Sequence record: EU863409
DNA length: 64,000 bases
From: Escherichia phage JS10
Direction: 5' to 3' (one strand)
Position numbers and translations under genes: made by a program
In this document: piece by piece, positions 7,950 through 59,795 of the stretch
Layout: each line of letters opens with the position of its first letter
How positions within the stretch are numbered: the first letter of the stretch is position 1
Notes under the pieces: generated by a model
The model's input: only the letters and a program-made list of their open reading frames with translations
What the model was told of the DNA's origin: nothing
Database searches by the model: none

Positions 7950-8122
7950 AATTTAATTTCCTTAGCTATCGAACAAAATACACCACGGTCACAAATCATT
8001 TTAATATTAAGGTCAATTATGGTATACCACACATCCAGGCTAGATATTTCAGTTACTAGAACAGCTTTGCCGTTGATTGAATAATACTGGTTGACTTTAA
8101 TTTCTTTATCTTGGATAGTCAT
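7946..8122 (-). CDS. hypothetical small protein (58 aa)
   Basis: Unlisted ORF MTIQDKEIKVNQYY... immediately downstream of a promoter-stem-loop cassette. Confidence 0.4.
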   Translation of the reverse strand: MTIQDKEIKVNQYYSINGKAVLVTEISSLDVWYTIIDLNIKMICDRGVFCSIAKEIKL

Positions 8123-8180
8123 AATGTTCTCCTCGTGTGTTGATAGGATAGACTATAACACGTGAGGAGAGGAAGTAAAC
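8123..8180 (-). promoter_or_regulatory. PeSL-like promoter-stem-loop cassette (variant)
   Basis: -35 GTTTAC (8175-8180), 17-bp spacer, -10 TATAGT; imperfect inverted repeat whose proximal arm carries GAGGAG SD. Confidence 0.45.
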
Positions 8181-14484: not shown

Positions 14485-14551
14485 AATAATTTCCTCAGTA
14501 AGTAATTAAGAACCTAGAACCATTATACCATCCTTGGTATAAAGCGTTTAT
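14485..14551 (-). promoter_or_regulatory. promoter-like element with stem-loop over -10
   Basis: -10 TATAAT (14522-14527) within hairpin TTATACC-N6-GGTATAA; -35 weak. Confidence 0.35.
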
Positions 14552-15072
14552 GCGAGAACCGTCTTTAAACGCTCTTCAAATTTCTGAAGCAGAGCTTGGC
14601 GTTCAGCTCGTTGTGATTTGTACTGCTCGATACGACCTGAAGTGAGGGCGTACTGTTCGTTTACTGATTCCCGCATGAATTCAGGAATCTCTTTACAAGC
14701 TTTGATTTCGTCAAACTTATCAATAACCGCTTGTTGTTCGGCAATCAAGTTATCAAAATAAGCGATATCTGATTTAACGTTTGCCAGGTCAGATTCGGTA
14801 GGCATTAAACGTTTATTACGCTCAGCTTGATAAGCTTGGTTGGTTTCACGACTCCAGTGAAGAGTACGTTTTTTGTTGGTGTTTTTATAGAGCTCTACAA
14901 TACCAACTGAATCGATGATAGCAATCCAGTTCCAACGGTTTTTGTAAATCTCTCCTCCAGATACGGTAATCTCATTACCACAAGCAACATCATTAAAGAA
15001 CTTGCTTTGTTTTTCAGATTTGAAATTACCATTGTTAAAATTAATCAGTGAAAAAATATCTTTAGCGTTCAT
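14548..15072 (-). CDS. hypothetical protein (174 aa)
   Basis: ORF immediately downstream of canonical PeSL-like cassette. Confidence 0.55.
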   Translation of the reverse strand: MNAKDIFSLINFNNGNFKSEKQSKFFNDVACGNEITVSGGEIYKNRWNWIAIIDSVGIVELYKNTNKKRTLHWSRETNQAYQAERNKRLMPTESDLANVKSDIAYFDNLIAEQQAVIDKFDEIKACKEIPEFMRESVNEQYALTSGRIEQYKSQRAERQALLQKFEERLKTVLA

Positions 15073-15127
15073 GATAACCTCCAGTAGTTGATAGGTCTAT
15101 AGTATCATGTCTAATGGAGATGTAAAC
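15073..15127 (-). promoter_or_regulatory. PeSL-like promoter-stem-loop cassette
   Basis: core TTGATAGGTCTATAGTATCA; -35 GTTTAC; 9-bp inverted repeat arms (one mismatch), proximal arm includes GGAGG SD. Confidence 0.55.
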
Positions 15128-15129
15128 AA

Positions 15130-19655: not shown

Positions 19656-19892
19656 TCACCAGTATTTGTTGATAGTAGAAATTAATTCTTGGGCCTGGGT
19701 AGTCTTCAGTTTACATCCACAACCCTTTAATGTGTCTTTAAGGAGCCATGGTTCCTTGAGCTCGTCCTTTTCTAGACGAATTCTGTATCCTCGATAATCG
19801 GCAAAGATACTTCGGTCGTCGAATATCTTAATCTCAAGGATACGACCGTTGATTTCATATTCTAATGAAACCGTAGTACTTGTAAGTTTCAT
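19656..19892 (-). CDS. hypothetical protein
   Basis: 78-aa ORF directly downstream of PeSL-like cassette. Confidence 0.5.
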   Translation of the reverse strand: MKLTSTTVSLEYEINGRILEIKIFDDRSIFADYRGYRIRLEKDELKEPWLLKDTLKGCGCKLKTTQAQELISTINKYW

Positions 19893-19949
19893 ACTGTTCT
19901 CCTCATTAGTTGATAGGTCTATAGTATCACGTTCCTAGAGGATGTAAAC
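19893..19949 (-). promoter_or_regulatory. PeSL-like promoter-stem-loop cassette
   Basis: core TTGATAGGTCTATAGTATCA; -35 GTTTAC (19944-19949); bulged inverted repeat. Confidence 0.55.
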
Positions 19950-23556: not shown

Positions 23557-24015
23557 TTAAAGATAGATTACTTTCGTGCTGGTTTTACCTTCTAAACGTT
23601 TAGAGTTAACAAATGCCATACGACATTTTAATGAATACCCTTTATCAGGATGTTTACGATCTACGGTCATACCCAACCATAAGGTTTTATCGGTAATCTC
23701 GAGACGCAGTGGACGATACACTTTACCTGGGACAATTTCAGATTCTACGTCAGGAAGAGGCTCCTGGATTAAAAATTCATGGATTTCTTTAACATGATTG
23801 TGGAGCTTCTTGAACAAAGAGAAAACATATTTTTCGTCAATTTCACGTTGGATAGCACGGTCCAACAAGTGATTAGAGTACTTAATAAAGAAAGCTGGGA
23901 CACCGCTCTTAATGGCGGCTTTTTTGATGGACGCGTTAAGTTCACGAAATTCGGTTTCGAACTGACGACGTAATTTGTTGCGGCGGATGAATACTTCTGA
24001 ATTAATTTCTGACAT
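23557..24015 (-). CDS. regB: RegB site-specific endoribonuclease
   Basis: 152 aa resembling T4 RegB (FIRRNKLRR, LLDRAIQREIDE); downstream of canonical PeSL-like cassette. Confidence 0.8.
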   Translation of the reverse strand: MSEINSEVFIRRNKLRRQFETEFRELNASIKKAAIKSGVPAFFIKYSNHLLDRAIQREIDEKYVFSLFKKLHNHVKEIHEFLIQEPLPDVESEIVPGKVYRPLRLEITDKTLWLGMTVDRKHPDKGYSLKCRMAFVNSKRLEGKTSTKVIYL

Positions 24016-24072
24016 TTTGTAATCTCCTGTAGTTGATAGGTCTATAGTACCACGTCTACAGGAGATGTAAAC
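24016..24072 (-). promoter_or_regulatory. PeSL-like promoter-stem-loop cassette (upstream of regB)
   Basis: -35 GTTTAC, 17-bp spacer, -10 TACTAT; perfect 9-bp arms CTCCTGTAG / CTACAGGAG (24024-24032 / 24056-24064). Confidence 0.6.
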
Positions 24073-24077
24073 TGCTT

Positions 24078-24356
24078 TTAGTATTTTTCTTCAGGTTGGA
24101 AAACGGAACGACAGGCCCACATGGATGCTTCTTTCAAGCGTTCGATTGCCGTACGAATCTGGGCGAGACGTTCATGAGTGAGGTCGAATTCTTCATCACT
24201 CATTTTATCAACACCCGAGCATGTAAAGGCTTCAACATATTCTTCTTCTAGTGCTTTAAAGATTAAGCCTAATCGAACTTCAGCATCTTTAATGGCATTC
24301 ACTTTACTGATTTTATCGTCGGTATGTGGCTTGTAACCTTTGATATCTTCAATCAT
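24078..24356 (-). CDS. hypothetical protein (vs.3-vs.8 region)
   Basis: 92-aa ORF; ATGA-coupled chain. Confidence 0.45.
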   Translation of the reverse strand: MIEDIKGYKPHTDDKISKVNAIKDAEVRLGLIFKALEEEYVEAFTCSGVDKMSDEEFDLTHERLAQIRTAIERLKEASMWACRSVFQPEEKY

Positions 24357-25544: not shown

Positions 25545-25844
25545 TTAGAAAGAACCAGAACCTTTAATTGTATTCTGGCGACCTTTATTTTCTAATTCAG
25601 AGTGGTCGATTTCGTATGCTTGGGCTACACCAAAGGCCTTTTTAACTTTAGCTAAAGAGCCTTTAGATGTAACAATATTAAAAGTATTACCTTTAGTAAA
25701 ATCAACCAAATCCACTTGTACGCCCTGTTTACCGAGGCTTGCTACAATAGCATCAACATATTCTTGGTCTAAGGTGCCTTGGACACCTATTTGGAATGCT
25801 TTAGGAGCTTTGGCTTCTGTAATAAATTCTTGATAGGTTTTCAT
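25545..25844 (-). CDS. internal-protein-like capsid-targeted protein
   Basis: N-terminus MKTYQEFITE (capsid targeting sequence with I-x-E protease site); 99 aa. Confidence 0.6.
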   Translation of the reverse strand: MKTYQEFITEAKAPKAFQIGVQGTLDQEYVDAIVASLGKQGVQVDLVDFTKGNTFNIVTSKGSLAKVKKAFGVAQAYEIDHSELENKGRQNTIKGSGSF

Positions 25845-25898
25845 ATTATTCCTTAAGTTGATAGAAGTATTCTATCACGGATTTAATTAAGCGTAAAT
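25845..25898 (-). promoter_or_regulatory. promoter with stem-loop over -10 (PeSL-related)
   Basis: -35 TTTACG, 17-bp spacer, -10 TAGAAT inside hairpin GATAGAA-N3-TTCTATC. Confidence 0.4.
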
Positions 25899-26303
25899 AG
25901 CCTTGCCATAGTGTTTGTACCAGGTAGGGCGTTGTGCAATTTTTTCGTCCAAACGGGCTTGTGAAATAGCGATAGAAGCTTCGTGAGGAACATAATCACC
26001 ACGGAATTCCTGAGGAATATCACTAATGTCCTGGACTGTAGTATCCTTGATATTAAAGCCACGTTTTAAACATTCGGCTATAAGCTCGATTTGACGCTTA
26101 CGTAAAAATTCAAGCTTATCATAAAAGAATGTAACGTGGCCTGTACCAAGGATAAAAGTAGGGCTGATTTTAAAATCACGAACACGTTTACCGTTAGCAA
26201 CATGCTTACGAACTGCACCGAAAACACGTGGTAATTCACGATATTCAGCCATTAAGTGTTGGTCAGCCAATTCAGATACTAAGGTAAGGTTGATACGAGT
26301 CAT
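25887..26303 (-). CDS. denV: endonuclease V (pyrimidine-dimer DNA glycosylase DenV)
   Basis: 138 aa, near-identical to T4 DenV along its length. Confidence 0.92.
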
Positions 26304-26359
26304 TTTTAATCTCCTGTAGTTGATAGGTCTATAGTATCATGCCTACAGGAGAAGTAAAC
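26304..26359 (-). promoter_or_regulatory. PeSL-like promoter-stem-loop cassette (upstream of denV)
   Basis: Same architecture and arms as regB cassette; -35 GTTTAC 26354-26359. Confidence 0.6.
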
Positions 26360-26758
26360 TTATTTGTAAGTTTTCATCCAATTCTTGAACAGAGCTGCAA
26401 CGTCTTTCTCTTTAACGTTCAATTTAACGTCCAGCATTTTGCCACCAGCGGCACGTGTCTGACGAATCTTAGCCGTACCGGTTTCGCCATTCCACTCAAC
26501 ATAATACTGCCCGGTGTTCATAGCGATACCATCGCCATAGTCTTCGTTCTTAGAAGTAGTGAATGCCAACTTCATGGTCTTAGAGACACGGGCCTGCATG
26601 CCTGTCTGCAGAGCGTTACGAACGCGAATAACCTGAGGAGTGGCCTGGGTCAGGTTCTCGTTCAGTTCTTCGGTGAACTCTTCTGATTCAAACATTGCCA
26701 AAAGTTCAGCGGGCGCCGGGATTACAGCTTCGGCGATAAATTCATTGTAAGTTTTCAT
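26360..26758 (-). CDS. internal-protein-like capsid-targeted protein (ipII position)
   Basis: N-terminus MKTYNEFIAE; 132 aa; C-terminus ends WMKTYK-stop, a remnant CTS start. Confidence 0.6.
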   Translation of the reverse strand: MKTYNEFIAEAVIPAPAELLAMFESEEFTEELNENLTQATPQVIRVRNALQTGMQARVSKTMKLAFTTSKNEDYGDGIAMNTGQYYVEWNGETGTAKIRQTRAAGGKMLDVKLNVKEKDVAALFKNWMKTYK

Positions 26759-26799
26759 ATAGGTCCTTTAAAGGTAAATGTGTTTAAGTATAGGCTTTA

Positions 26800-27396
26800 T
26801 TAATTACCACGGGCTGCATTAGCAACGGCGTAAGCGTACTGAATATTAGCGTCTTTAAACGTACCTTTAGAGGTATCTAGCTCTGCCTTAAAGCCGGCTT
26901 TAGTCATAACATCGGCAAATTCTTTACGGAAAGCCATTGTATCAAGACCTTTCCATGCTGATTTATGCTTGGCAAATTCAAGACCAGCGAAGTTGACTGC
27001 TTTAGCCAATTTATTATCAATAGTCCATTTACCTGCTTTAGGCACAAATATCGGACCTTTCTGTTTAGAGAATAGTTTTAAATTCCAGCGACGAAGGTCG
27101 CCGTCGGCTTTAACAAAAGCTGCGTCCAAGTTACTAGCAACAACATCTTGAATATGGCCAAATTTAAGCCCATCAGCTTCAATATTTAGGTCGTTACGCC
27201 AGCGAAGTCCTTCCCAGGCGAAAGCTTTAAAGTCGGAAGCTTTTGTAGCTAAATACCGTTCAATAGGAGCTGTTTTAGCGTCAAAGCCGTTTCCTGGGTT
27301 GTCAACGCCGTTTCCTCGGTAGGTCCACTCATCTTTATTAATGCCTTTGACCTTTCCTGCAGTAGCTTCGGTGATAAATTCTTTATACGTTTTCAT
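26800..27396 (-). CDS. internal-protein-like capsid-targeted protein (ipIII position)
   Basis: N-terminus MKTYKEFITE; 198 aa Lys/Ala-rich. Confidence 0.6.
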   Translation of the reverse strand: MKTYKEFITEATAGKVKGINKDEWTYRGNGVDNPGNGFDAKTAPIERYLATKASDFKAFAWEGLRWRNDLNIEADGLKFGHIQDVVASNLDAAFVKADGDLRRWNLKLFSKQKGPIFVPKAGKWTIDNKLAKAVNFAGLEFAKHKSAWKGLDTMAFRKEFADVMTKAGFKAELDTSKGTFKDANIQYAYAVANAARGN

Positions 27397-27475
27397 ACGG
27401 GTCCTTCAAATGTAAATTTAATTAGTCTGTTCAAGTAACTGTAGATATACTATCACAATTCTAGGAGATGTAAAC
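27397..27475 (-). promoter_or_regulatory. PeSL-like cassette (variant) upstream of internal-protein operon
   Basis: -35 GTTTAC (27470-27475), 17-bp spacer, -10 TAGTAT. Confidence 0.45.
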
Positions 27476-27480
27476 TGCTT

Positions 27481-27969
27481 TTATCTATAAGCAGCCCAAG
27501 TACCTGTTTTAAAGGTGGCGATAACACGCTTGGCACGATTCGGGGTTTGCTTGTACCAACGAGACTGCGCCAGGTTAACTGCCGCATCGTCCCAACGTTT
27601 CTGTTGGAGCATACGTAAAGAGTTAGTGAACCCTGCCACACCTGCTTCACCCATTTGGAAGACCATATTAATCAATGCGCAACGACGAACTTCGTCCAAC
27701 ACATCATAAACCGGTTTCAATTTAGGATTGCGCATTATAGCTCTACGAGCATTTTCCACTGAACGATTAAAGAGTTGTTCAGCTTCAGCCATAGTAATAC
27801 GACCATTACAAACTCGACCCATAAGCTTATCAAGTTCAGCGCGAGCAACATCTTTAGATGGGTTCTTGGTAACTAACTGGCCAATACCAATAGTCCAATA
27901 ACCTTCGGTGTCTTTATAAAGGTTTAAATCAAGACCTTCGTCTTGACGTAACATATCAAAAATATCCAT
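27481..27969 (-). CDS. e: endolysin (T4 lysozyme, gene e)
   Basis: 162 aa; catalytic E11/D20-containing N-terminus [21 protein letters not shown]; matches T4 lysozyme. Confidence 0.92.
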
Positions 27970-27973
27970 AATT

Positions 27974-27993
27974 ACCTCCTGATTATAGGAGGT
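27974..27993 (-). promoter_or_regulatory. Shine-Dalgarno-sequestering hairpin of gene e
   Basis: Inverted repeat ACCTCCT-GATTAT-AGGAGGT; proximal arm is the AGGAGG SD. Confidence 0.55.
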
Positions 27994-28000
27994 ATTTATA
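27993..28000 (-). promoter_or_regulatory. T4-type late promoter (TATAAATA) for gene e
   Basis: Exact TATAAATA immediately 5' of a CCTCCT-N6-AGGAGG hairpin and the e start codon. Confidence 0.6.
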
Positions 28001-30176: not shown

Positions 30177-30242
30177 TTTATTCTCCATTTCACTCTGTTG
30201 TTTTGATAGGTCTATAGTATCACACCTATAGACCTTGTATAC
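30177..30242 (-). promoter_or_regulatory. PeSL-like promoter-stem-loop cassette (type with core-derived stem)
   Basis: -35 GTATAC, -10 TACTAT; perfect 10-bp stem AGGTCTATAG / CTATAGACCT (30208-30217 / 30226-30235). Confidence 0.55.
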
Positions 30243-30254
30243 TGTTTTATGCAA

Positions 30255-31214
30255 TTATTTTTCGAAAGGACGAATTAAATGTTGGTTAGCCTTGAAACGA
30301 TTAACATAGTCTTCGCGACCCAGGGTGTTATACATATTAACCACAGCTTGGTAGTTTTCCCAGGCATACTCACGGAACCATCCAGAAGTAATGGAGGTAC
30401 AGACTTTTTCCAGAGCAACATGGAAGCTCACGGATGGAGAGATATTGAACTCATTAGGAACCTGCGAACGCTCTAGAGCAAGTACACATGCTTCTTCATA
30501 TACGCCAGCCAGTTTAATAGCTTCAGGCAAAGCTTCAAACTTCTCACGTGAGGTCATGACTTCAGAACCATCTTTCATATAAAAGGTATACGCTGGGCGT
30601 CCAGCCAATGCCACAGCTTCATGGATAGAGTCATGGTCTAATGTATAAATGGTATCATTAAAGAACGATGATTTGTTTACATCCAATTTAGGATGAGAAT
30701 AGCTCAACGTTTCTTTCTGGCGTTGCAGCATGATTTCTTGGAGCTCTTCATTCAAGGTTACACCTTTATTACGAAGATATTTGATGTGGGACATCGTCTT
30801 CAAAAAGAACGGGTTGTTCTTCAAATAACGATGGCTCATTTTGATAGCCAGACAGATATCAGGCGTGGCCCAATAGAAACCAGTAAGACGATCCTTTTTA
30901 ATATGATTTTCAGCATATTTCAGGAGACGATAACTTGAGGTGAAATCTTCGTCCTGAAGCTCACCGGTAATTTCTCGTACGTTAGTCAGAGCACGGACAA
31001 TATAAGCTTCAAAATAGGTTTCTTTACCATTGTACATACATTTAAAGGCCTGGACATCTGGATTATCCACAGGGACATGGGCGCCGAACATCCGGGCTTT
31101 AAATTGATTCCATGAGCCTTGGTCGGCAATAAAATCCCAATCAGAATTTTCAATATACTTACTTTCAATCAGACCAGCGTGGTGCAGTGCACGAGAACCA
31201 ATAACTAGCATCAT
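30255..31214 (-). CDS. hypothetical protein (319 aa), possible nucleotidyltransferase-like N-terminus
   Basis: N-terminal IGSRAL...SDWDF weakly resembles a G-S...D-x-D fold motif; otherwise unassigned. Confidence 0.5.
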   Translation of the reverse strand: MMLVIGSRALHHAGLIESKYIENSDWDFIADQGSWNQFKARMFGAHVPVDNPDVQAFKCMYNGKETYFEAYIVRALTNVREITGELQDEDFTSSYRLLKYAENHIKKDRLTGFYWATPDICLAIKMSHRYLKNNPFFLKTMSHIKYLRNKGVTLNEELQEIMLQRQKETLSYSHPKLDVNKSSFFNDTIYTLDHDSIHEAVALAGRPAYTFYMKDGSEVMTSREKFEALPEAIKLAGVYEEACVLALERSQVPNEFNISPSVSFHVALEKVCTSITSGWFREYAWENYQAVVNMYNTLGREDYVNRFKANQHLIRPFEK

Positions 31215-35595: not shown

Positions 35596-35618
35596 ATCTT
35601 TTTTAAACTTTTAGAAAC

Positions 35619-35646
35619 AAAAAAGGCCCAACCTTTCGGAAGGGCC
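35619..35646 (-). terminator. intrinsic terminator
   Basis: GGCCC...GAAA...GGGCC hairpin plus U6; identical sequence repeated at 36242..36270. Confidence 0.55.
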
Positions 35647-35651
35647 TCGAA

Positions 35652-36232: not shown

Positions 36233-36240
36233 TATTTATA
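36233..36240 (-). promoter_or_regulatory. T4-type late promoter (TATAAATA)
   Basis: Exact TATAAATA 27 nt upstream of gene 35652..36206, just downstream of a terminator. Confidence 0.5.
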
Positions 36241-36241
36241 C

Positions 36242-36270
36242 AAAAAAGGCCCAACCTTTCGGAAGGGCCT
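36242..36270 (-). terminator. intrinsic terminator after tRNA/sRNA cluster
   Basis: Same 29-bp hairpin plus U6 as at 35619..35646. Confidence 0.55.
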
Positions 36271-38424: not shown

Positions 38425-38490
38425 TTTATTCTCCAATCACTCATTTGTTTTGATAGGGCTATAGTATCATCACTAAAGCCCGTTGTAAAC
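38425..38490 (-). promoter_or_regulatory. PeSL-like promoter-stem-loop cassette (covarying stem)
   Basis: core GATAGGGCTATAGTATCA with stem GGGCTATAG / CTAAAGCCC; -35 GTTTAC. Confidence 0.55.
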
Positions 38491-38492
38491 AC

Positions 38493-38786
38493 TTATTTTG
38501 TAATTTCTTTGATTTTAGAAACTACTTTATCTTTGGTAAGACCGGAAAAAGTCTTATATTTTGTAAAGTGGATATCATCACCAAGATTAATATAATATTT
38601 CTTTTTAACCGTATTGAATGCTATACTAACAGGTTTACCATTTACTGTAATAGTAATTTGCTGAGCCTTATCAACATCACCTGAGCCAAAGGCTCTTTTA
38701 ATATCGCTACTAATATCGGCCATAGCCGCTTTGTTAATGGAATACAAATCTGTCGATTCTTTGATAAATTCTTGATAAGTTTTCAT
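38493..38786 (-). CDS. internal-protein-like capsid-targeted protein
   Basis: N-terminus MKTYQEFIKE; 97 aa; downstream of canonical PeSL-like cassette. Confidence 0.6.
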   Translation of the reverse strand: MKTYQEFIKESTDLYSINKAAMADISSDIKRAFGSGDVDKAQQITITVNGKPVSIAFNTVKKKYYINLGDDIHFTKYKTFSGLTKDKVVSKIKEITK

Positions 38787-38855
38787 TTTTTTGTTTCCGT
38801 TAGGTTGGGTTTGTTTTGATAGGTCTATAGTATCATGCCTATAGACCTTGTAAAC
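38787..38855 (-). promoter_or_regulatory. PeSL-like promoter-stem-loop cassette
   Basis: -35 GTTTAC (38850-38855), 17-bp spacer, -10 TACTAT; perfect 10-bp stem 38821-38830 / 38839-38848. Confidence 0.6.
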
Positions 38856-38866
38856 ATCTTTTTAAA

Positions 38867-39780
<914 letters not shown>

Positions 39781-57395: not shown

Positions 57396-59795
57396 ATGAT
57401 TAACAAATTGGAACTTAGTGAGTTACCATTTGTTGACGGCGTACCTGATGCTCCTCAAAAGCGTATCCAATGGATACGCGAGGGTGATTGTATGTCTGCG
57501 GCAAAAACAAAATACGGCAATGAAGGTAATTTGAACGCTGCTGCTTTAGGAGTTCAGAAAAACGTAGAAGCTCTTGATGCCAACGATTTAAAAACTGCTG
57601 ATAAAGTTAATGAGCTTATAGAAAACGTTAATAATATCAATGACGCTTTAGAAATGTCAACAGATATTTCTATCATTCAACAAATAGAGAAAAACCGTGT
57701 TGATATTGTAGACCTTAAAAAAGTCACCGAAGATACAACAGAAAAATTGGACACCTTAACAACCAATTTTGATTTCTTGCGTGAAGATGTTGGTTATCAT
57801 GACCCTTTACAAGACGGCCCATATTTAACTGTACGTGAAAATATTGTTCTTCTTAAAACTGAAATAGGTCATTATGAAAACCAGGATATAAACGGCAATC
57901 CACTGCCTCCTGGCGAAACTAATGAAGCCACTGGTATAAAACGCCGCATCATGGATAATACCACTGAATTGGTGGACCATCGTCTCCGCCTTGATACCCT
58001 TGAAAGAAACTATGAAGATTCTGATGTTGGACAATTGGGTATTAAATTAAATGAAATTCGCGCCGAATTAGGACCACATTCTGATACGGTAGGTAAACAA
58101 CCTGCATATACCCGAATTTCAGTATTAGAAACGGCTGCAGTTAATTTTAATACAGCTATTGACGAAATTAAGGATAATATTGATTTCTCTGGTATGCCTA
58201 TAAAGGACCGAGTAACTACTTTAGAAAGCAAAACCTTTACCTTAGAAAATTCGGTTAATGTTGATTTAAAACCTAGAGTAACTTCTATAGAAACTCAAAT
58301 CGGATCCGAGTCTGCACCGGCATCTATTAATGGTCGTTTAAGCGGACTTCGTACTGATGTAAATGATTTAAAAACCGTAGTAGGTGTTAGTTCAAGTGAT
58401 GGCCTACGTTTCCAAGTTACTGATATCAACCGCCGTTTAGGTAGTGAAGTATCTCCGGCTGCAGGAACCATTAATAAGCGTTTAAATGATGTTATTATTC
58501 AAGCAAACCAATCCACCTCGTCTATCCAGGATATTCAGGTAAAAATTGGTAACAACCAATCCGGTATTAAGGGTACTTTACTTAAACTCACCGATAAGGT
58601 TGACGGGACGAACCCTAACGGAGCTACCGTAGAAGAACGTGGTCTTATTAATGCGGTTACTTCTTTAGAAACCCAGATGCAAGGTAAATTAGGTGATGCA
58701 CCTTCTGATGGTAAACTCTATGCACGTCGAAATGCGGCATGGGCTGAAGTTGTTAATAATTCCACAGAAATAGAAACCGTTAAAGCCGATTTAGTTGTTA
58801 CCGACGGTAAAGTGACCGCGTTAACTTCCAGAGTAGATGGTAATGATACCTCAATTTCTTCTCTTGATACTCGTACCGGTGCATTAAACACTTCGGTTGG
58901 CGAGATTAAAGCTGATATAGTTTCTATAAAGGCTAAAGATGATGAACAGGATGGTCGTTTAACAGCACTTGAATCTAGTGATGTGACCATTAACGGTAAA
59001 ATTGCTGCTCTTGAAACTAAGACAGATACCACTGATGATGATGTCACAGCACTGGCTTTAGACGTTTCTTCTTTAGAGAACCAATTGACTCCTATAAAAG
59101 CCGATATTACCAAAAACAAAGGTGATATTGTTGCCTTAACTGGTCGAGTGGCTTCTACTGAAGGCGAAATTAATGCAATTAAAGTTGATACAGCCAAAAT
59201 TGCTCCTTTAACAACTAGAGTTACTACGGCAGAAGGTAAAATCACTACTTTAGAAACAGGGCTTGCCGCTGTTAAAGTCGAATCCGATAAGGTAGCAGGT
59301 ATTAATACCCGCCTTAGCACTGCAGAAGGTGACATCGGAACACTTAAAACAGGGTTGGCTGAAGTTAAGGGTGAATCCGATAAAGTAGCAGCTATAGATA
59401 CCCGTTTAGGTGTTGTTGAAGTTGAATCAGGTAAAGTAGCAGGAATCGATGCTCGTTTGGGTGATGTTGAAGGCGAAGTTAGTACTCTTGAAACGGGTTT
59501 AGCTGCCGTTAAAGTCGAATCCGATAAGGTAGCAGGTATTAATACCCGTTTAGGTACGGTCGAAGGTAAAGTTGGTACTCTTGAAACAGGTTTGGCTGCT
59601 GTTAAAGTTGAATCTGATAAAGTTGCTGACTTAGGAACCCGTTTAACCGCCGCCGAAGGTAAAATTACGGCCTTAGAAACAGAATTATCTAAACGTCCAC
59701 CGGTGGCTCCTGCCGCAGACGGACTTCCGTATGTTCTGGTTGATAACGCATGGGTATTATTGTCTGATTTTGTGACTTTAAACTCAGCGCCATAA
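57396..59795 (+). CDS. wac: fibritin (whisker antigen control, wac), expanded
   Basis: 799-aa coiled-coil protein with C-terminal foldon-like YVLVDNAWVLLSDF; internal tandem repeats; followed by terminator. Confidence 0.8.
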   Translation: MINKLELSELPFVDGVPDAPQKRIQWIREGDCMSAAKTKYGNEGNLNAAALGVQKNVEALDANDLKTADKVNELIENVNNINDALEMSTDISIIQQIEKNRVDIVDLKKVTEDTTEKLDTLTTNFDFLREDVGYHDPLQDGPYLTVRENIVLLKTEIGHYENQDINGNPLPPGETNEATGIKRRIMDNTTELVDHRLRLDTLERNYEDSDVGQLGIKLNEIRAELGPHSDTVGKQPAYTRISVLETAAVNFNTAIDEIKDNIDFSGMPIKDRVTTLESKTFTLENSVNVDLKPRVTSIETQIGSESAPASINGRLSGLRTDVNDLKTVVGVSSSDGLRFQVTDINRRLGSEVSPAAGTINKRLNDVIIQANQSTSSIQDIQVKIGNNQSGIKGTLLKLTDKVDGTNPNGATVEERGLINAVTSLETQMQGKLGDAPSDGKLYARRNAAWAEVVNNSTEIETVKADLVVTDGKVTALTSRVDGNDTSISSLDTRTGALNTSVGEIKADIVSIKAKDDEQDGRLTALESSDVTINGKIAALETKTDTTDDDVTALALDVSSLENQLTPIKADITKNKGDIVALTGRVASTEGEINAIKVDTAKIAPLTTRVTTAEGKITTLETGLAAVKVESDKVAGINTRLSTAEGDIGTLKTGLAEVKGESDKVAAIDTRLGVVEVESGKVAGIDARLGDVEGEVSTLETGLAAVKVESDKVAGINTRLGTVEGKVGTLETGLAAVKVESDKVADLGTRLTAAEGKITALETELSKRPPVAPAADGLPYVLVDNAWVLLSDFVTLNSAP
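59223..59675 (+). repeat. tandem coiled-coil repeat region inside wac
   Basis: At least three copies of an approx 30-aa unit TLETGLAAVKVESDKVAGINTRL; two copies share a long identical nucleotide block. Confidence 0.6.

Follow-up and report, generated by a model that had tools for sequence, protein, structure and literature searches.

Early promoter cassettes of a JS98-like T4-type phage carry hairpins predicted to sequester the Shine-Dalgarno sequence in read-through transcripts

Several early genes of Escherichia phage JS10 are preceded by compact promoter/RBS cassettes of the early (sigma-70) type, in which promoter DNA would double as an anti-Shine-Dalgarno sequence. The hairpin of such a cassette is predicted to pair the Shine-Dalgarno (SD) sequence of the downstream gene in transcripts reading through from upstream, and to leave it free in transcripts started at the cassette's own promoter. 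In the 64,000-nucleotide stretch of DNA analysed here (record EU863409, hereafter the window), own-promoter-dependent translation is the best-supported reading for regB, denV, an nrdC.8-like gene and the gene starting at position 8122, and on computational grounds we hold it to be probable, the comparison between phages being its strongest support. What would be new is that the known logic of promoter-embedded RBS hairpins is applied to early, not late, promoters.

The 10 kb surrounding the regB cassette show 97.8% identity to Escherichia phage JS98 (Dhakavirus, a T4-like myovirus), and the window is that of a JS98-like T4-type phage whose early genes all lie on the minus strand. Gene names were taken over from the JS98 annotation for the regB ORF (23557..24015), the denV ORF (25887..26303) and the nrdC.8-like ORF (14548..15072), all on the minus strand. 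The window also contains a 78-codon ORF (19656-19892, minus strand) that is served by a cassette promoter of its own (19949) and closely preceded by a strong terminator (19987-19962), in a stretch where the JS98 record has no annotated gene. A conserved RBS and N-terminal coding stretch is common to five genes (25808-25859, 26722-26773, 27360-27411, 38750-38801 and 39040-39091, in plus-strand coordinates of minus-strand gene starts). The copy at 25808-25859, the sole one translated (by eye), reads MKTYQEFI..., in agreement with the capsid-targeting leader of the T4 internal proteins; ipIII is among the five genes. Within a late structural gene (59139-59645, plus strand), four copies of a 177-nt unit were found, with 60-77% identity and 93/144-nt spacing.

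The regB cassette (24016..24077, minus strand) occupies the entire intergenic region from the stop codon of a vs.4-like gene (24078-24080) to the regB ATG (24015). On the minus strand this region reads gcaGTTTACaTCTCCTGTAGacgtggTACTATagacctatcaaCTACAGGAGattacaaaATG, and its denV counterpart is nearly identical. Both follow the layout GTTTAC(-35)-a/tTCTCCTGTAG...TACTAT(-10)-agacctatcaaCTACAGGAGatta..ATG, in which GTTTAC-17-TACTAT with TGn upstream of the -10 is a T4-type early promoter and the 5' arm of the hairpin fills the beginning of the spacer. In regB, the -35 GTTTAC (24067..24072) is followed by the anti-SD 5' arm AUCUCCUGUAG (24056..24066) within the -35/-10 spacer, by the -10 TACTAT (24044..24049), which has TGn just upstream and lies in the hairpin loop, and by the 3' arm CUACAGGAGAU (24022..24032), which includes the SD GGAG (24027..24024). 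The denV cassette (26304..26359, minus strand, ATG at 26303) has its -35 (26359..26354) immediately behind the stop codon of the preceding gene and its -10 at 26336..26331. Its 5' arm UCUCCUGUAG is at 26343..26352 and its 3' arm CUACAGGAGA at 26310..26319, the latter including the SD GGAG (26314..26311). In both genes the SD is 8-11 nt before the ATG. The earlier note had placed the SD in the proximal arm and the distal arm between the -35 and -10 elements, and this description is confirmed for regB and denV. It had also assigned one and the same pair of arms to three cassettes, which is exact for regB and denV and fails for nrdC.8, whose arms read CTCCATTAG ... CTACTGGAG. In that third cassette (15073..15129, minus strand, ATG at 15072), the -35 is at 15127..15122, the -10 at 15104..15099, the 5' arm AUCUCCAUUAG at 15121..15111 and the 3' arm CUACUGGAGGU at 15087..15077. 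Start sites were inferred at 7 nt past the -10, that is at about 24037 (regB), 26324 (denV) and 15092 (nrdC.8). All three are downstream of the 5' arm, and the regB 5' arm would be present only in RNA started upstream.

The arm sequence CTCCTGTAG has 4 matches on both strands, for a shuffle expectation of 0.22, and none of 100 shuffles reached 4. Together with its complement it occurs in the window only in the regB and denV cassettes, where it forms two inverted-repeat pairs (24024-24032/24056-24064 and 26311-26319/26343-26351); the composite CTCCTGTAG-N23-CTACAGGAG was found twice against 0 expected. Both cassettes belong to a repeated cassette family, D2, with 7 copies of roughly 60-74 nt, to which the families D3 and D5 are related, and they are near-identical copies 2,287 bp apart. 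Since both are copies of one repeated family, the identity of their arms proves little by itself: the two hairpins are one evolutionary event, not two, and the significance of the arrangement comes from the folding z-scores and from other phages. Another repeat, D6 (32.5-33.3 kb), with CCTCCTC upstream of the SD, was considered as a sequestering hairpin and rejected, as it does not fold.

In the nrdC.8 cassette, relative to regB and denV, a T-A to A-T double change keeps one pair of the helix and another pair is lost through a G>T change. At nrdC.8 of close relatives the arms match perfectly (CTCCAGTAG/CTACTGGAG), which indicates that the T-A to A-T difference is truly compensatory; the destabilising single G>T is found in the window and in JS98. 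More distant VR-type phages have at nrdC.8 a hairpin around the -10 with a free SD. In an alignment of the cassette family, 90% of the cells are paired, compared with 27-53% when the partner is slid, a comparison of low power as the sequences are closely related. Pair 13-45 of this alignment goes from U-A to A-U in the nrdC.8 copies.

We then turn to the predicted RNA structures. Read-through RNAs fold with predicted energies of -19.2 kcal/mol for regB (z -3.4), -19.5 kcal/mol for denV (z -4.3) and -17.9 kcal/mol for nrdC.8 (z -2.1), while the RNAs beginning at the inferred starts are predicted to be nearly unstructured (-1.4 to -2.2 kcal/mol, z about 0). The predicted helix consists of 10-11 bp covering GGAG and of a 4-bp inner helix, UGAU/AUCA. 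For regB and denV, the predicted probability that the SD is unpaired is about 0% in the read-through RNA and 31-64% in the promoter-initiated RNA. A fourth cassette, with different arms and the same logic, precedes the gene at 8122, which is probably nrdH-like (cassette 8123..8180, minus strand, ATG at 8122). In this cassette UCUCCUC (8170..8164) and GUGUU (8161..8157) pair with AACAC and GAGGAGA (8134..8128), and the read-through RNA is predicted at -19.9 kcal/mol (z -3.0). The central proposal of the earlier note, a free SD in RNA from the cassette promoter and a paired one in read-through RNA, thus holds in folding predictions made with inferred start sites.

The mechanism that we propose would work as follows. 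An RNA polymerase coming from upstream would copy the spacer arm AUCUCCUGUAG into RNA and, some 25 nt further on, the SD arm CUACAGGAGAU. Once the SD emerges, the helix of 10-11 bp, extended by the inner UGAU/AUCA pairs, would close and block binding of the 30S subunit. A polymerase starting at the cassette promoter, about 7 nt past the -10, would start inside the loop and yield an mRNA devoid of the 5' arm, with its SD free. Translation of regB, denV, nrdC.8 and the gene at 8122 would in this way be tied to their own early promoters and their synthesis confined to the immediate-early burst, and later read-through and middle-mode transcripts across these genes would be translationally silent. 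We infer from sequence and folding the start sites, the helix in vivo and the effect on translation, and likewise the presumed purpose, which would be to limit the dose-sensitive RegB nuclease, DenV and ModB.

Such a device presupposes that transcripts enter the cassettes from upstream. The upstream ORF stops 5 nt (regB), 0 nt (denV) and 2 nt (nrdC.8) before the -35, and in nearly all loci the upstream stop codon lies at -1 to +5 nt from the -35. A terminator scan called no terminator-like site between the upstream gene and the regB, denV or nrdC.8 cassette, and the same scan detected clear terminators elsewhere in the window, for instance at 19987-19962 and 16880-16861. With a stop codon next to the -35 and no terminator, upstream transcripts are expected to run through the cassettes; in T4, early transcripts are known to read through (PMC2988021). 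The cassette hairpins resemble intrinsic terminators in being intergenic stem-loops. However, the regB, denV and nrdC.8 hairpins lack the G+C-rich stem, short loop and U-run of these terminators: their loop is 23 nt long (11-13 nt with the inner helix), their stem is moderately G+C-rich and they are followed by AUUACAAAAUG instead of a U-run. SD pairing is weak or absent in the window cassettes at 19949, 16838 and 35595, the three that are preceded by a true terminator; this agrees with the view that sequestration is required wherever read-through cannot be avoided.

To see how far the arrangement extends, regB and denV loci were taken from viral contigs and 46 distinct T4-like upstream regions were folded one by one. 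In the long RNA, the probability of an unpaired SD was at most 0.02 in 36 of the 46 regions and at most 0.10 in 39. The corresponding values were 0.2-0.8 in the RNA from the start site and mostly 0.1-0.6 when the spacer and discriminator were shuffled. No SD sequestration was found, within this set, in the regB lineage L007/L009 and in the denV sequence L054. The orthologues fall into about 15 arm families and two geometries, and in both geometries the partner of the SD lies upstream of the predicted start. In geometry A this partner is an arm in the spacer (e.g. TTTCTCCTCTTTATG/CATAAAGAGGAGAAA, CTCCGTTTG/CAAACGGAG, TTCCTCCAAG/CTTGGAGGAA and TCTCCTGTG/CACAGGAGA). In geometry B the -10 hexamer and the next 6 nt pair with the region from the SD through the AUG (e.g. 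GTATGATGTCTTC/GGAGGACATCATG and ATATAGTAGCCTT/GGAGGCTACTATG), and the outcome would be the same. Fold z-scores of example orthologues ranged from -2.3 to -6.4. In a swap control, cognate arms did better than at least 94% of the non-cognate ones in 10 of the 15 families. Consensus folding of arm-family representatives with RNAalifold predicted zero pairs, because the helices are not positionally homologous between families, and in a MAFFT alignment of the -10-geometry set the two arms did not line up; folding of single sequences, shuffles and swaps between cognate and non-cognate arms took the place of consensus folding.

As a negative control, on a sample too small to carry weight, the SD was sequestered in none of 6 denV loci from non-T4-like or jumbo phages. 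The jumbo-phage denV loci (contigs of 345-378 kb) are of another design, a compact terminator-promoter composite. In 3 of 4 (L045, L049 and L055), a terminator-like hairpin with a TTGAC -35 in its stem lies about 40-70 nt upstream of the gene and is followed by a T-run-GCTATAAT (GTATAAT in L055), as in the example GGGTTGACTTCGGTCAGCCCTTTTTGCTATAAT; the fourth, L051, has a similar TTGAC hairpin with GCTATTAT instead.

The same property was found in T4 itself. T4 denV has the same cassette as the window, so the model is directly testable in T4. T4 regB (L099 4727-4812) has a different helix of 15-18 bp, TTTTCCTCTTGACTG/CAGTTAAGAGGAGAA (z -4.1); the JS98-like regB cassette thus differs from that of T4 and the property is nonetheless kept. 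T4 modB (L100 13116-13200) follows geometry B, with 19 bp including the AUG (z -4.1), and T4 motB.2 (L100 8147-8232) follows geometry A (z -6.4), the SD being sequestered in both. None of the modB, motB.2 and regB helices appears among the inhibitory RBS structures of the T4 reviews consulted. Taken at the level of folding, SD sequestration by early-promoter hairpins would extend to T4 and many relatives, for a subset of cassettes.

The complementarity could in principle serve DNA instead of RNA, as a cruciform, a protein site or a recombination signal, or could result from passive duplication of a cassette, as the proximity of the near-identical regB and denV copies might suggest. Comparing helix stability in the sense and antisense RNAs gave a mixed outcome across arm families, which is also what such an explanation would allow, and selection at the RNA level is therefore not proven by this comparison alone. 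Helices relying on G-U pairs, however, work in the sense RNA only: that of T4 regB is predicted at -21.4 kcal/mol in sense and -15.2 kcal/mol in antisense, and that of L056 at -13.1 and -5.4 kcal/mol. Moreover, about 15 unrelated arm pairs all keep their complementarity at orthologous genes, and no palindromic protein-site consensus is common to the arm families. We therefore regard an origin at the DNA level or by mere duplication as very improbable.

The position of the upstream stop codon points to another possibility, namely translational coupling, in which the ribosome ending the upstream ORF would melt the base of the helix (CUCC:GGAG), and regB and denV would, on read-through RNA, be translated in step with the gene before them instead of being silenced. 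In the spacer geometry the 5' arm indeed starts 5-12 nt past the upstream stop, and the first pairs to be reached are the SD pairs. Judged by textbook footprint dimensions, however, a ribosome halted at the stop codon would probably melt no more than a few of the 10-15 pairs in the spacer geometry. In the -10 geometry, which many denV orthologues have, the arm starts 22-32 nt past the stop, beyond a terminating ribosome. Coupling is, on these grounds, improbable as the role of the helices, and own-promoter-dependent translation is retained as the preferred reading.

Another alternative is shielding from the RegB nuclease. RegB cleaves at GGAG and is inhibited by secondary structure, and a helix hiding the GGAG of long transcripts might protect polycistronic RNA from it. 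The regB gene is itself tightly regulated, with an early promoter switched off at 2-3 min and self-cleavage at its own SD. Compared with GGAGRAYARAA, the candidate RegB/S1 site of the regB cassette is GGAGAUUACAA, predicted to be unpaired only in the short transcript; it has C at position 9, a residue never seen in well-cleaved T4 RegB sites (PMC1702504). The T4 denV SD withstands RegB in vivo, as shielding would have it, but the cause was found in the sequence 3' of GGAG and not in structure. Sequestration also occurs with SDs of the GAGG type (T4 motB.2). Furthermore, a paired SD could not be translated whatever RegB does, which would make protection an added consequence of sequestration and not an alternative to it. 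As the reason for the helices, shielding from RegB is thus highly unlikely.

We also asked how general sequestration is among early genes, the earlier note having suggested that its reuse reflects a general way of making translation depend on the promoter. In the window, the SD is fully paired in 6 of 16 early-promoter-proximal genes and in 11 of 66 others. In 60 kb of T4 the corresponding counts are 6 of 17 and 7 of 72, these last 7 including the known cases e and I-TevII. The enrichment is significant for window and T4 combined (Fisher p = 0.003) and weak for the window only (Mann-Whitney p = 0.08). The suggestion therefore stands as to recurrence at several early genes and has to be narrowed as to generality, the SD-sequestering arrangement being present in about a third of early cassettes. 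The spacers of early promoters are themselves biased: CTCC or CCTC occurs in 7 of 18 in the window, for a background of 4.6% (p = 9e-6), and in 4 of 16 in T4, for a background of 3.3% (p = 0.0016). T4 early-promoter spacers tend to open with pyrimidine runs (TTTCC...), a possibly promoter-related feature that could give some anti-SD character for free.

A second class of hairpins was found at other early promoters. These are stable, have both arms upstream of the predicted start and the -10 in the loop or 3' arm, leave the SD free and exist only in read-through RNA. In the window they are located at 38815-38870, 30205-30258 and 38450-38505 (minus strand). The promoters 38855 and 30242 carry AGGTCTATAG-8-CTATAGACCT (z -4.3 and -3.6), and promoter 38490 carries a covarying copy of the hairpin, GGGCTTTAG/CTATAGCCC. 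The same design occurs at the window promoters 35128, 7059 and 12457 and at T4 ipII, ipIII, dmd and motB. These SD-free hairpins raise the possibility of an additional role for the stem-loops, and they are the main reason why an explanation based on published cassettes has to be kept as a serious rival.

The regB, denV and nrdC.8 cassettes belong to the published class of PeSLs (promoter-early stem-loops), the repeated promoter/stem-loop/SD cassettes of variable regions in T4-like genomes (Arbiol et al. 2010, Comeau et al. 2014). Like PeSLs, they are repeated units of about 60-100 bp with an A/T-rich upstream part, a strong sigma-70-like promoter, a stem-loop inside the promoter or spanning it, an SD and an ATG, located at junctions where relatives differ in gene content. 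The 7 copies of D2 carry an early promoter, SD and ATG; the spacer holds the 5' arm and the loop the -10; and at regB and denV the unrelated upstream sequences of relatives join within a few nt of the -35. Similarity begins a few nt from GTTTAC when L003 is compared with L005 (regB) and L021 with L024 and L058 (denV). Such junctions at the cassette edge are consistent with the cassette-mediated gene shuffling proposed for PeSLs. Two identical 31-bp terminator-like hairpins (AGGCCCTTCCGAAAGGTTGGGCCTTTTTTGT, minus strand), at 35617-35647 and 36240-36270 in the window and 623 bp apart, flank one gene, as shuffling of the PeSL type would leave behind.

PeSL stem-loops have been taken for terminators or attenuators, and also for recombination sites (PMC2839356), and those of T4/PST are drawn upstream of the promoter. 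The hairpins described here might accordingly attenuate, terminate or insulate upstream transcription, or stabilise the 3' end of the upstream mRNA, and provide homology for shuffling, with SD coverage as a by-product. Besides the match of the cassettes to the PeSL description and the exact joining of different upstream genes at their edge, the commonness of covarying hairpins that enclose the -10 but not the SD speaks for this view. These hairpins enclose or overlap the -10, as PeSL stem-loops do. The length of the 5' UTRs speaks for it too: they have only about 20 nt, so that practically any helix across the start site will extend over the SD, and the probability that a randomly placed 3' arm would do so is near 1. 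Targeting of the SD is hence inseparable, on this evidence, from selection for a hairpin across the promoter. On the other hand, the regB, denV and nrdC.8 hairpins have a 23-nt loop and no U-tract and went uncalled by the terminator scan. The helix of geometry B does not enclose the promoter at all; in it the -10 pairs with the SD through the AUG, which is sensible only with the RBS as target. The PeSL papers (Arbiol et al. 2010, Comeau et al. 2014) do not mention translation or SD sequestration. We consider a generic PeSL function with incidental SD coverage to be rather unlikely, and continue with own-promoter-dependent translation.

The logic has a well-known precedent, which the earlier note had invoked and located correctly in the window. 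Gene e reads TATAAATA-CCTCCT-ataatc-AGGAGG-taatt-ATG, its hairpin (27967..28000, minus strand) comprising the late promoter TATAAATA (28000..27993), CCTCCT (27992..27987), a 6-nt loop and AGGAGG (27980..27975) before the ATG (27969), with a predicted energy of -14.7 kcal/mol. The CCTCCT-N6-AGGAGG arrangement and the analogy with the T4 lysozyme gene are thus correct; in T4 the hairpin of e is experimentally established and is said to cut lysozyme synthesis about 100-fold (PMC3014915). The T4 reviews list inhibitory RBS hairpins at e, soc, 49, I-TevI and homing endonucleases (PMC3014915, PMC2988022); promoter-embedded ones also occur at I-TevII/III, segB and Aeh1 mobE. According to Edgell et al. 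(PMC2988022), the genes known to be controlled in this way "are all late genes". The T4 reviews consulted thus describe RBS-sequestering hairpins for late genes only, and the older denV/regB literature may hold an earlier remark.

In the late-gene hairpins of T4 and, by prediction, in the early cassettes, a helix pairs the SD and/or AUG in long transcripts, and the promoter lies in the 5' arm or loop, from which the gene's own transcript is made without the inhibitory strand. The two differ in the promoter: the late class has a gp55 promoter TATAAATA, the early cassettes an early promoter of the sigma-70 type whose -35 and -10 flank or form the 5' arm. They differ also in timing, the late class delaying translation until late whereas the early cassettes, at immediate-early genes, are predicted to shut translation off after the early burst. 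The combination of a late (gp55, TATAAATA) promoter with a late gene is found in the window only at gene e and not at the regB and denV cassettes. As the promoters of the latter are early sigma-70 ones, they are a variant of the gene e class and not strict members. The early cassettes would then be promoter-embedded RBS hairpins of the T4 type, carried by early-promoter cassettes of the PeSL type.

Beyond the genes of the window, we regard it as quite possible, though put forward tentatively, that a conserved layer of control exists, with selection acting jointly on early-promoter DNA (the spacer or the -10) and on the SD and AUG downstream of it and making the mRNAs of dose-sensitive enzymes (RegB, DenV, ModB and others) translatable only if born at that promoter. 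If so, some of the PeSL stem-loops, until now regarded as terminators and recombination sites, would have to be reinterpreted, and the sequence constraint on early-promoter spacers would be explained. The hexamers TATGAT, TATAGT and TATAAT would covary with the codon-proximal leaders AUCAUG, ACUAUG and AUUAUG. Cassettes of about 60 bp might also supply parts for synthetic circuits, insulating a gene translationally from upstream transcription. In the T4 developmental programme, the most thoroughly studied of any phage, the arrangement would allow protein synthesis restricted to the immediate-early period without any repressor, and would explain how some early proteins cease to be made while their genes stay transcribed, giving a reason why a nuclease and an ADP-ribosyltransferase are made only in the first minutes. 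It would be a protein-free timing device, in which the promoter of origin of an mRNA decides whether it can be translated, in early genes as well as in late ones.
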